Positions 1 through 3,000 of a stretch of DNA of 7,816 nt are shown here, piece after piece (the first letter of the stretch is position 1; the number at the start of each line of letters is the position of its first letter). Position numbers: made by a program. This stretch comes from a virus (lineage: Duplodnaviria; Heunggongvirae; Uroviricota; Caudoviricetes): the IMG/VR virus record IMGVR_UViG_2671180770_000017, positions 1 to 7,816 of that record, one strand, 5' to 3'.

Positions 1-3000
1 ATGACAAAGGCTGGGATGCCAGAAAGCGTGCGTATTGCCTGAAAATCCAGCCAGCTACAGGGTCGTTCGCACGAAATCTTATTTATTCAACAAAGCCGAT
101 TTTCGCTCGAAACCTTCCTGTCAGATCCATAGCGAATCAAGTGCTGAATGTCACAGTATCGAACAGAAAACAGTGACGATCTAACCCTTCAAGAATATTC
201 TACGATTGTTCTATTTAGGAAAAGCAAGGCGGGAAGTCGGGAGATAAGTCATTGATAAAGTGGCGGAGAGAGGGGGATTTGAACCCCCGGTAGAGTTGCC
301 CCTACTCCGGTTTTCGAGACCGATGATACCGAATCGCAAAATCAAAAGGTTATAAATTTTTCTTGGAATAAATGTCTTAAAAACATACACGAAAAATCAA
401 TAAACTACGTTGAATTCAATAAGAATATTCCAAGCCTTCTTTGAGTTATTTTTGACCAGTTTGCTGTTTTTCTTTCTCATAAAATATTTCCTGATATCCC
501 TTAACATTACTGATACTCAAGTAGTGAATTTATGAGCAATCCTAATCCATGCATGACGTGTGGTGCCTGTTGTGCATTTTTCGCGTCTCTTTTTACTGGG
601 CTGAAGCAGATGATGCTGGCGAAAGGTTTATCAGAAAACCGTAGCGCCTTCTTGCATACGACGTGTCCGCAGTTTTATATAATCCCGACCAGAAACCTCT
701 TATAAAAAGTCGATACACAAATATCATGGATAAGCACCACCTTCTGACGAAGAATATCTGATGAAATTAATCGCCCCTCTCCTGAGACCATTGCGCTGGG
801 GTAAATTTGTAACTACGTGTGTACAGTGAGGTGTCGTATAGCACGCCGTCAGGAAATGCAAGGTGCCCCCGATATCCCCGACTACAAGTCAGCAAACAAA
901 GTGATTGGCTGGCAATCCACATCACAGAAATGGACAATGCTACTTTATAATCGAGCTTGGTAGCCACCTTGATGGTCACTTTTAAAAAAAGCGTTTACAC
1001 AAAATGATAAGCAGGCTCACAGGACCTCCCTCTAATCATCCACATTGTAAAGCTCCTTTGTTGTAAGTAAGATCCGGCACCCTAATAATATCAAAAGGAT
1101 CAAAATCATCACTGCATCCTTCCACAAGACATTTCATTGCTCGTAGATCACCATATAGCTCTGAAGAGTGATGCGGACATAACAGACCATAAACTTTACA
1201 TTTAGAACCTTCTTTACCTTGTCTACTTTCCTCAATTTTTACTTTCAATGAATACAGAAAAAAAAGCTCCCTGATATAACCATCCCTGTCATCTATCGTC
1301 ATCCCCTCCCTCAGTGCTCCGACAACCTCATCAGTATTTTCATTTCTCACCTCAAATACACTATTTCTCTTATCCATCAGCCCACTTACAAAAGCACTTA
1401 GCTCTTGATAAATTTCCTCAAGCTCATTACTATTTCTGGCATTTGAGTATATAGAGATCATAACATCAAGTTTATCTTGTAATTCAGGAGTAAGAAAATG
1501 ATTATGATTAAGTTCACTTACTGATTCCGGAGTCGAAGGGTTACCTCTTCCTGATACATACATCCATGAATAAAGATTTGCTGAAGAGCCACTTGTTGGT
1601 AACATATCAAAACCCCCTTAACAAATAAATATTATAAAAAAATATGGCTGTATAAAAATATTATACCTTACTTAATACCACACTAATAAGATCTTGCTTT
1701 CCTCCATGATAAGATTGCATGATTTCATGTCTACTCCATGAAATATCAGAAACATTATAAGATGATATATCTATTGGATTAAATTCATTTCTCACACGAT
1801 CATATAAAACATTTGTTTCTGTTGTATCAACAAAAAGAATTCCTTTTTTTCCAGTCTCTCAAACATATCATAAATAGCATGCTCAGCCTGTGCTGGCAAG
1901 GACGAAATATTTAAAAGCGATTCTCCATTTATTTTATCCATTCTAATACCAATAATATCTCTATTATCGCCATATATTTTCTCTGCACTCCCGGCACCAT
2001 AATACTGGTTGAAACAACGAACTTCGCTTGTCACCTCTTCATGGCTTTGAGATATAGTAAACATCTTCAACACTTTTGTTGTATTTTCCATATCTTCATA
2101 CACGACAGCATTACCACCTTTACCAATAACGTTACCTAGCACGGGTGATTTGTTGTTGCTAAGCCTCAGCAACGCTGACTGAGTATAATCCGCTGGCGGT
2201 AACTCCGGCTGCGCATAATCCACTGGAGGTAAATCAGGTCTGTTCGAACGAACAGATCCTCTTTCTATAGTCGTGCTCACTGTCGATGAATTCAGCATAG
2301 CCTCAATTTTTCTGGTGATCTCTCCCTTAGGCCATCCCAGTCTATACAGCATATTAGTAAAACATCCACTATGACTCTCTCTTGTCACGCAAAACCTATT
2401 ATCACTTAAAACAACGCGATATGTTCTGTTGCTAACCTTTACTTGCGCCCCATTATCAGAGTGAGCGGCAGCATCCCTTACAGAGGGATAAAACACGATT
2501 ATCAGGCAAAGTCAGGTTTCTGGTTAAAGAATTCCATGAACACCCCAAATTTACAGAAGATGGTGATAGCATACATTTCAACCTTCAAAATGAATCAATC
2601 TTTACTTTCTTAACAAACATCACCATGACATGACAACAAAAAACTGGAAATTAACTATTGTTTTTGAGTATCTGGCAACTCATTCATCCTTCCAGCATCC
2701 CGTCAGACGAACGTTTACGAACTATAAATCAGGTATTACTGGCCCTCGAAATCTGGAGATACTGACGTATCAACACGGTTCAGTAACACCCGATACCTCT
2801 TCCAGACTGTCAACAACGATGTCTCTTCATCCGTTGCGATCTGCAGCATCCTGAATATGAATGCCATAGCTTACGGCATCACGAAAAGTTTATGAGCGGC
2901 TCAAAGCATCAAGTATAGTATTACTAATCATATCGACCGTATGCTGATCAATGAGTCTGCCACGACTGTCATGGACGGCGCGTATTACACTTTCGTATAC

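Follow-up and report, generated by a model that had tools for sequence, protein, structure and literature searches.

Boundary of a defective lambda-like prophage in the tRNA gene serU, with scraps of ykgJ and of a DNA invertase gene beside an nleF effector locus

The window, i.e. the whole 7,816-nt stretch of DNA that was analysed (positions 1 to 7,816 of IMG/VR record IMGVR_UViG_2671180770_000017), carries an effector locus of which nleF (1036-1605, minus strand) is the first gene, as assigned by Pfam and by the RefSeq annotation of a 99.7% identical locus. It is followed by a frameshifted nleH, a tail-fibre-assembly remnant, an nleC stump and nleB2. RefSeq gives this order in O103:H2 12009, where a YkgJ-family pseudogene precedes nleF and the tail fibre genes, lom and gpJ come after nleB2, and Pfam matches to the window's own ORFs concur (PF16809, PF13678, PF24688). 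Positions 99-6503 are 99.1-99.4% identical to loci in 84 complete genomes, and 106 genomes (O103:H2, O145:H28 and others) share the first 1,040 nt of the window at 99.4-99.7% identity; in O145:H28 the serU prophage holds nleB, nleF and nleH (PMC7067040). The last part of the window, 6497-7816, picks up again inside the terminase gene of the O103 prophage, at 99.85% identity, which implies a deletion of ~18 kb, from inside lom to inside the terminase gene. Judged by its sequence, the prophage in the window is defective.

At its other end, the window opens with the terminal 97 nt (1-97) of an IS5-family insertion sequence that ends in TTATTTATTCAACAAAGCC and sits in yodB-serU intergenic backbone, 164 bp from the tRNA fragment described below. 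Window positions 1-100 match, at 100% identity, the termini of elements annotated with an IS5-family transposase at many unrelated sites in chromosomes and plasmids, and the terminal sequence probably resembles the IS903-group inverted repeat. The junction of 1-97 to 98-262 is absent from all 5,426 complete E. coli genomes. The DNA that follows (98-260) is native to the 3' side of serU in the yodB-serU intergenic region; it is found at ~99% identity in 5,405 of the 5,426 genomes and is identical in the empty-site strain WB61, and in O103:H2 12009 yodB is located upstream of the equivalent flank. A preliminary description of this DNA had taken all of 1-260 to be backbone, which holds for 98-260 and has to be given up for 1-97, where the end of the insertion sequence lies.

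Next to this flank are the 3'-terminal 62 nt of serU, the gene for tRNA-Ser(CGA) (261-322, minus strand), a displaced bacterial copy of the att identity block. Aligned to the intact 90-nt serU of WB61 (anticodon CGA, locus L002 3167-3256), the fragment is identical at 62/62 positions, starting at the 5' strand of the anticodon stem and ending at CCA. The 30 nt past CCA are also identical to WB61, identity is lost at 323, and the empty-site genomes among the 5,426 align to window positions 230-322 and end at 322; the CCA at 261 and the end of similarity at 322/323, both given in the preliminary description, are thus exact. An exact 62-nt match is far beyond chance expectation. ARAGORN found no complete tRNA in the window, in keeping with a fragment, and neither an intact serU nor an integrase is present in the 7,816 nt searched. 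Rfam at E<=1 returned only artefacts from the window, i.e. a match, antisense to the tRNA fragment and under the gathering score, to a plastid 3'-UTR family, a T-arm match to tmRNA and a weak sX4 match. At a tRNA-gene junction the 3' part of the tRNA matches the intact gene, with native DNA on the CCA side and phage DNA opposite; here, besides the 62/62 identity, 98-260 is backbone and everything from 323 onward belongs to the phage (arm, effectors, tail fibre, lom and terminase). The earlier suggestion that the fragment marks the end of a tRNA-integrated prophage is borne out, since it is the displaced 3' end of serU at the tail-fibre/effector end of a serU lambdoid prophage, as in O103:H2 12009 and in phage SerU-LTIIb (GenBank KU052038), where an identical 62-nt pseudo-tRNA is annotated beside yodB. 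The tRNA fragment is a textbook prophage boundary of a kind annotated in public records before, and the boundary as a whole is an ordinary, already documented end of a defective lambda-like prophage in serU.

The far end was read in the near-identical locus of O103:H2 12009 (NC_013353) by walking outward from the fragment. The serU locus of this strain contains three tandem lambdoid prophages over ~153 kb, and the array terminates in a frameshifted tyrosine integrase gene that is separated by 27 bp from an intact serU, with mtfA following. The closest reference therefore does have the intact serU and the integrase that the preliminary description had expected at the opposite end, albeit with an array in between and not one simple prophage. 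Both internal junctions of the array have an integrase other than the terminal one, and beside the internal-junction integrase lies an unrecombined attachment-site-like sequence that contains the 3' half of a tRNA-Ser(UGA), in opposite orientation. An origin of the array by simple tandem integration at serU was rejected because the internal junctions hold this different, opposite-oriented tRNA-Ser-like half; they would instead fit homologous recombination of whole phage genomes into a resident prophage. Relative to native serU, the intact serU of the O103 lysogen has a compensatory A>G / T>C pair in the variable arm, and the window fragment has the native allele there. This allele pattern is as expected if the phage brings its own 62-nt block and the exchange takes place near the anticodon-stem end (~304-322), although the argument for this crossover position is weakened in that the junctions on either side of the O103 array may not derive from one and the same phage.

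Beyond the tRNA fragment lies an AT-rich attachment arm of 119 nt (323-441) that is conserved in serU-integrating lambdoid phages. Directly behind their own copies of the 62-nt fragment, SerU-LTIIb, strain 2013C-3264 and phages ev099 and mEp332 have a sequence 91-95% identical to this arm, and similarity is lost past ~441 in all four. The arm is common to independent serU prophages with unlike cargo, i.e. a side tail fibre in SerU-LTIIb and nleC in 2013C-3264, and 883 of 5,426 complete E. coli genomes combine backbone, 62-nt fragment and arm. Two copies of the 9-mer TATTCCAAG lie in the arm, one at 362-370 (minus strand), which is kept in three other arms, and one in inverted orientation at 426-434 (plus strand), with arm conservation stopping 7 nt further; there is no other copy in the 7,816 nt, even at one mismatch. 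The same motif is repeated three times in tandem adjoining the integrase at the intact serU of O103:H2 12009 (L005 46854-46885), 46-77 nt from the CCA end of that gene. Both copies in the window are probably arm-type integrase sites, and the arm region also has one match to the IHF consensus (340-352). No free phage with a serU-type integrase beside an unrecombined attachment site was found to confirm 323-441 as the arm. The best matches, ON470580 and ON470583, were rejected as free phages; they are prophage predictions that include mtfA and asnT. More generally, the matching 'phage' records are prophage predictions with chromosomal flanks.

The arm gives way to an AT-rich spacer (442-523) that matches near-identical prophages only, except for 511-523, which is similar to DNA preceding an intact ykgJ paralogue carried by a phage; the L010 match starts at 511. 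The preliminary description had called the ~700 bp before nleF AT-rich, which is right for 323-531 (27.8% GC) and wrong for 532-1035, where GC is ~45%, equal to that of the whole window. At 524-621 (plus strand) is a non-functional ykgJ 5' stump, consisting of 8 nt upstream of the gene and 30 codons with one C absent at 582/583. With this C restored, 29/30 residues are those of K-12 YkgJ; similarity to ykgJ stops at 621, and 79 of the 109 codons are lost. RefSeq annotates the piece in NC_013353 as a frameshifted, C-terminally truncated pseudogene. The frameshifted YkgJ-like pseudogene proposed earlier thus has a real frameshift but is a 30-codon 5' stump and not a whole gene. Intact YkgJ proteins match Pfam PF03692 (CxxCxxCC), while the repaired 37-residue peptide is too short and gave no Pfam match; membership of this family takes a complete domain of ~85 residues in an open frame, and the window has 30 codons with a 1-nt deletion. 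At the DNA level the stump is 92.9% identical to chromosomal ykgJ of Escherichia/Shigella, 83% to that of Citrobacter, 89% to the phage-borne paralogue and 87% to stumps in Stx phages. An exact 44-nt scan for the stump in species-representative genomes gave no match, and a degenerate-pattern scan found only Escherichia/Shigella (92.9%), Citrobacter (83%) and one 401-bp contig labelled Lysobacter (92.6%), so these genome scans contain no donor closer than Escherichia/Shigella ykgJ.

Three further pieces fill the space up to nleF. A stretch of ~40 nt (620-660, plus strand) resembles ecpE-ykgJ intergenic DNA at K-12 locus L008 2423-2462 and is out of order with respect to the ykgJ stump. Its identity to K-12 is ~71% by hand count, with a weak direct blastn match (E=2.3), and the link to K-12 runs through locus L011 of strain VCSW5, with 80% identity to K-12 on one side and 79% to the window on the other; from 620, a prophage remnant in VCSW5 matches the window at 79% over 189 nt. 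It is followed by the 3' remnant of a Pin/PinE-type DNA invertase gene (678-812, minus strand) in which only the part for the C-terminal helix-turn-helix is left. This remnant has 75-79% DNA identity to pinE and recombinase genes, and BLASTP aligned it to PinE residues 152-182 of 184 with 19/31 residues identical (61%, E 2e-11), while Pfam returned nothing for the 45-residue peptide, which is too short. Serine invertases of the Pin/Hin/Gin type have a catalytic resolvase domain as well as the helix-turn-helix, and the window keeps PinE 152-182 only. Finally, part of the nleF 3' flank (819-1035), at 942-1005, is similar to the sequence on the 3' side of an nleG gene in an ompW-integrated prophage (74% over 66 nt). 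An imperfect repeat within the window pairs 697-721 with 979-1003. The region as a whole, 323-1035, is carried by 110 genomes.

The position of the ykgJ piece had been thought unusual for prophage cargo, a view refuted by its recurrence. Stumps of the ykgJ 5' end recur in several prophages at the same place, with the att end on one side and effector or tail-fibre genes on the other: in Stx1 and Stx2 phages, adjoining nleC; in one case in another serU prophage; as a 27-nt vestige in the second of the O103 prophages; and as two stumps in one ompW prophage. Their cut points vary among prophages (27, ~90 and ~112 nt), and ykgJ has therefore been eroded repeatedly from the 3' side. In E. coli strain E02, an intact ykgJ paralogue lies beside tail fibre genes in a prophage. 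Nakamura, Ogura, Gotoh and Hayashi (2021) described lambdoid prophages that bear sequences derived from the ykgJ/ecpE region beyond their effector loci, in blocks of 29+96+184 bp, of which the 96-bp part is a secondary attachment site, attB-in-PP_2, for other phages; O103:H2 12009 is listed as 'not analyzed' in their S5 Table (PMC8112680). The pieces in the window likewise are ykgJ/ecpE-derived and lie beyond an effector locus at a lambdoid prophage end. From the block lengths and the start of the copy in the ompW prophage, the 96-bp attB-in-PP_2 would fall at ~L008 2344-2439. The earlier idea of a relic of an earlier insertion or cassette was right in spirit, the ykgJ stump being a relic of an already known kind that is recurrent at effector-carrying prophage ends.

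Overall, 98-441 is very probably one junction of a lambda-like serU prophage made by tyrosine-integrase recombination, followed by a debris heap before nleF. The phage would have entered serU by site-specific recombination; its attachment site would have contained the terminal 62 nt of the tRNA as a copy, and the exchange would have restored a complete serU beside the integrase, at the far end. The 62 nt of the bacterium's own gene would have stayed here, joined to native DNA and now abutting the arm, where integrase probably binds the two putative TATTCCAAG sites. Past the arm, the accessory end of the phage would form an exchangeable effector locus (nleF, nleH', nleC' and nleB2), and the 600 bp before nleF would be dead fragments left by repeated recombination, namely the frameshifted 30-codon ykgJ stump, the ~40 nt similar to the ecpE-ykgJ intergenic region and the final 31 Pin codons, none of them coding. 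The ykgJ pieces are part of a chromosome-derived set found at this end in lambdoid phages of attaching-and-effacing E. coli. The identities, boundaries and distribution of the pieces are observed directly; integrase binding at the motifs, the position of the crossover and the order of the rearrangements are inferred from them.

The debris might be read instead as a trace of one prophage integrating into another, with the stump, the intergenic-like piece and the pin remnant forming either the scar of a secondary attachment site like attB-in-PP_2 or a copy of such a site that could still be used. The 96-bp ykgJ/ecpE-derived att does lie directly past nleF-containing effector loci (PMC8112680), and the window has two non-contiguous ykgJ/ecpE pieces by nleF; furthermore, the 3' breakpoint of the stump (L008 2598) is found again in a diverged copy in the ompW prophage, and in VCSW5 the intergenic-like piece directly adjoins a pin gene where a prophage remnant ends, as an attachment site would adjoin its phage. 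On the placement given above, however, no more than the final 17 nt of the 96-bp site would be left in the window, and its copy is therefore taken as debris and not as a usable site. No phage is inserted at the window's ykgJ/pin pieces, 442-523 has no similarity to the ecpE-ykgJ intergenic region, and the ykgJ-region pieces are out of order and not the product of a single site-specific event. A scar or usable site of this kind is accordingly unlikely, and it is just as doubtful that the pieces record a past nested integration, by a pin-carrying phage into a ykgJ/ecpE-derived secondary att inside the serU prophage. Were it true, nested integration would extend the network of 'prophages integrating into prophages' to serU and might explain the origin of the three-prophage serU array in O103:H2.

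Two other readings carry still less weight than that. The tRNA fragment could be serU cut by a deletion or an IS-mediated rearrangement and not by phage integration, in which case no intact copy would be needed elsewhere; an insertion sequence is close by (1-97), the prophage has a large deletion, and, as tRNA-Ser(UGA) can read UCG, serU may be dispensable. This is very improbable given that serU is broken at the same nucleotide in 883 genomes and followed each time by the same conserved arm, that KU052038, a serU prophage described independently, has these 62 nt annotated as well and that an intact serU stands at the far end of the reference array in O103:H2 12009. That the ORF at 532-705 (57 residues) is a real small chimeric gene retaining the CxxCxxCC metal-binding motif is scarcely credible, even though it has an ATG start and an open frame with the motif (CMTCGACC) intact in frame: because of the deletion its frame departs from ykgJ after residue 17, from 622 it runs through unrelated DNA and from 678 through the antisense strand of the pin remnant, RefSeq calls it a pseudogene, Pfam has no match to it and no promoter-like site was found upstream. 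As its composition indicates, ORF 532-705 is a chance reading frame over three unrelated scraps.

These results leave current understanding unchanged and matter mainly for annotation: the prophage boundary is fixed at 322/323, 1-97 is to be labelled insertion sequence rather than backbone, and ORF 532-705 should not be called a gene. The serU prophage junction with its adjoining debris further illustrates the way in which lambdoid prophages with effectors gather scraps of host DNA and old recombination sites at their accessory ends; these are a substrate for effector shuffling among EPEC and STEC strains.

Compared with known systems, the stump has in common with YkgJ (PF03692) the first 30 codons, including CxxCxxCC, and is no functional member of this family, whose domain is a putative zinc- or iron-chelating one. 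Like the attB-in-PP loci (attB-in-PP_1/2/3), the window has ykgJ/ecpE DNA at a lambda-like prophage end, past a cluster that includes nleH and nleF. Its prophage is integrated in serU, whereas the attB-in-PP prophages occupy ompW, mlrA or ydfJ; unlike their loci, the window has fragments only (L008 2423-2462-like and 2501-2598-like) and lacks the 21-bp yecE-type att, the 121-bp ompW-type att and a nested phage. With lambda attL/attR, which consist of a core and of arms with arm-type Int sites and IHF sites, it shares an identity block, an AT-rich arm, a short motif repeated on both arms and a match to the IHF consensus, but the identity block is 62 nt of a tRNA gene here and 15 nt in lambda. 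The integrase at the O103 far end is of the ST64B/serU type, with ~65-70% DNA identity to Salmonella and Klebsiella phage integrases. Closest of all are the serU prophages of STEC O103:H2 and O145:H28 with nleB, nleF and nleH, at 99.3-99.7% identity across 99-6503; the IS5-family insertion at 97/98 is particular to the window copy (0/5,426 complete genomes), which differs from the known serU prophages also in its ~18-kb lom-terminase deletion. SerU-LTIIb has the 62-nt pseudo-tRNA-Ser by yodB and the ~119-nt arm in common with the window, and directly past the arm it carries side tail fibre genes in place of the effectors.

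The prophage in the window is defective: relative to the near-identical reference locus of O103:H2 12009 (NC_013353), it lacks head and tail genes spanning about 18 kb. The deletion junction lies at window positions 6497-6503, where there is a 7-nt overlap; the first ~46 codons of lom have been lost and the remainder joins the terminase large-subunit gene at a mid-gene position. The effector locus (window 1792-3180) is itself decayed: nleH is frameshifted, leaving a 234-residue ORF, only the first ~96 codons of nleC are left, and a tail-fibre-assembly remnant is found at ~2763-2847. 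Closer to the serU fragment, an imperfect 25-nt direct repeat (76%; window 697-721 and 979-1003) flanks the interval from the pin remnant to nleF, and window 942-1005 is similar (74%) to DNA flanking an ompW-prophage nleG gene on its 3' side. The stretch next to nleF may be a shared effector-cassette flank.

At the other side of the 62-nt serU fragment (window 261-322, minus strand), the end of an IS5-family insertion sequence occupies window 1-97, and its insertion point and the fragment's CCA end are 164 bp apart; no complete E. coli genome out of 5,426 carries such an insertion at this site. A match to the Rfam family 'Plastid-psbl-rps4 3'UTR' at window 264-315 on the plus strand scored 40.9 bits, where the gathering score is 68, and was rejected as an artefact: the family contains tRNA-Ser-like sequence, and the matching strand is antisense to the tRNA fragment. 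A tRNA T-arm-like fragment, GGAGGTTCAAATCCTCTC, was found in strain VCSW5 (L011 2418-2447), where it directly precedes an ecpE-ykgJ intergenic-like segment that adjoins a pin pseudogene; ARAGORN called no tRNA at this T-arm-like fragment.

In the O103:H2 12009 lysogen the intact serU (L005 46931-47020) differs from native serU in the stem of the variable arm, where an A-U pair has become G-C by a compensatory change; this marks out the working tRNA's 3' part as coming from a phage. Within the three-prophage array at this serU there are two identical integrase genes, each followed by a tRNA-Ser 3' half with the anticodon UGA, a terminator hairpin and CTTGGTATA repeats. These two sites (L003 45005-45063 and L004 48106-48164) resemble the attachment sites of a different type of phage in their unrecombined state, which suggests that the array was made by homologous recombination rather than by repeated integration.

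The accessory regions of two free phages, ev099 (L012 2161-2619) and mEp332 (L013 2051-2509), contain three adjoining parts: yodB-serU backbone of E. coli (~280 nt), the serU fragment of 62 nt, and the 119-nt arm that is conserved in serU-integrating lambdoid phages. Yet both phages encode a lambda-type integrase and, judged by its core, have a lambda-type attachment site. The backbone-fragment-arm block is thus the fossil of a junction between phage and host DNA, which could have originated when a serU prophage was excised aberrantly and its integrase module was then swapped. PhiR70_1 matches in the arm (L014 2407-2525) and shares the gene layout of ev099 and mEp332.
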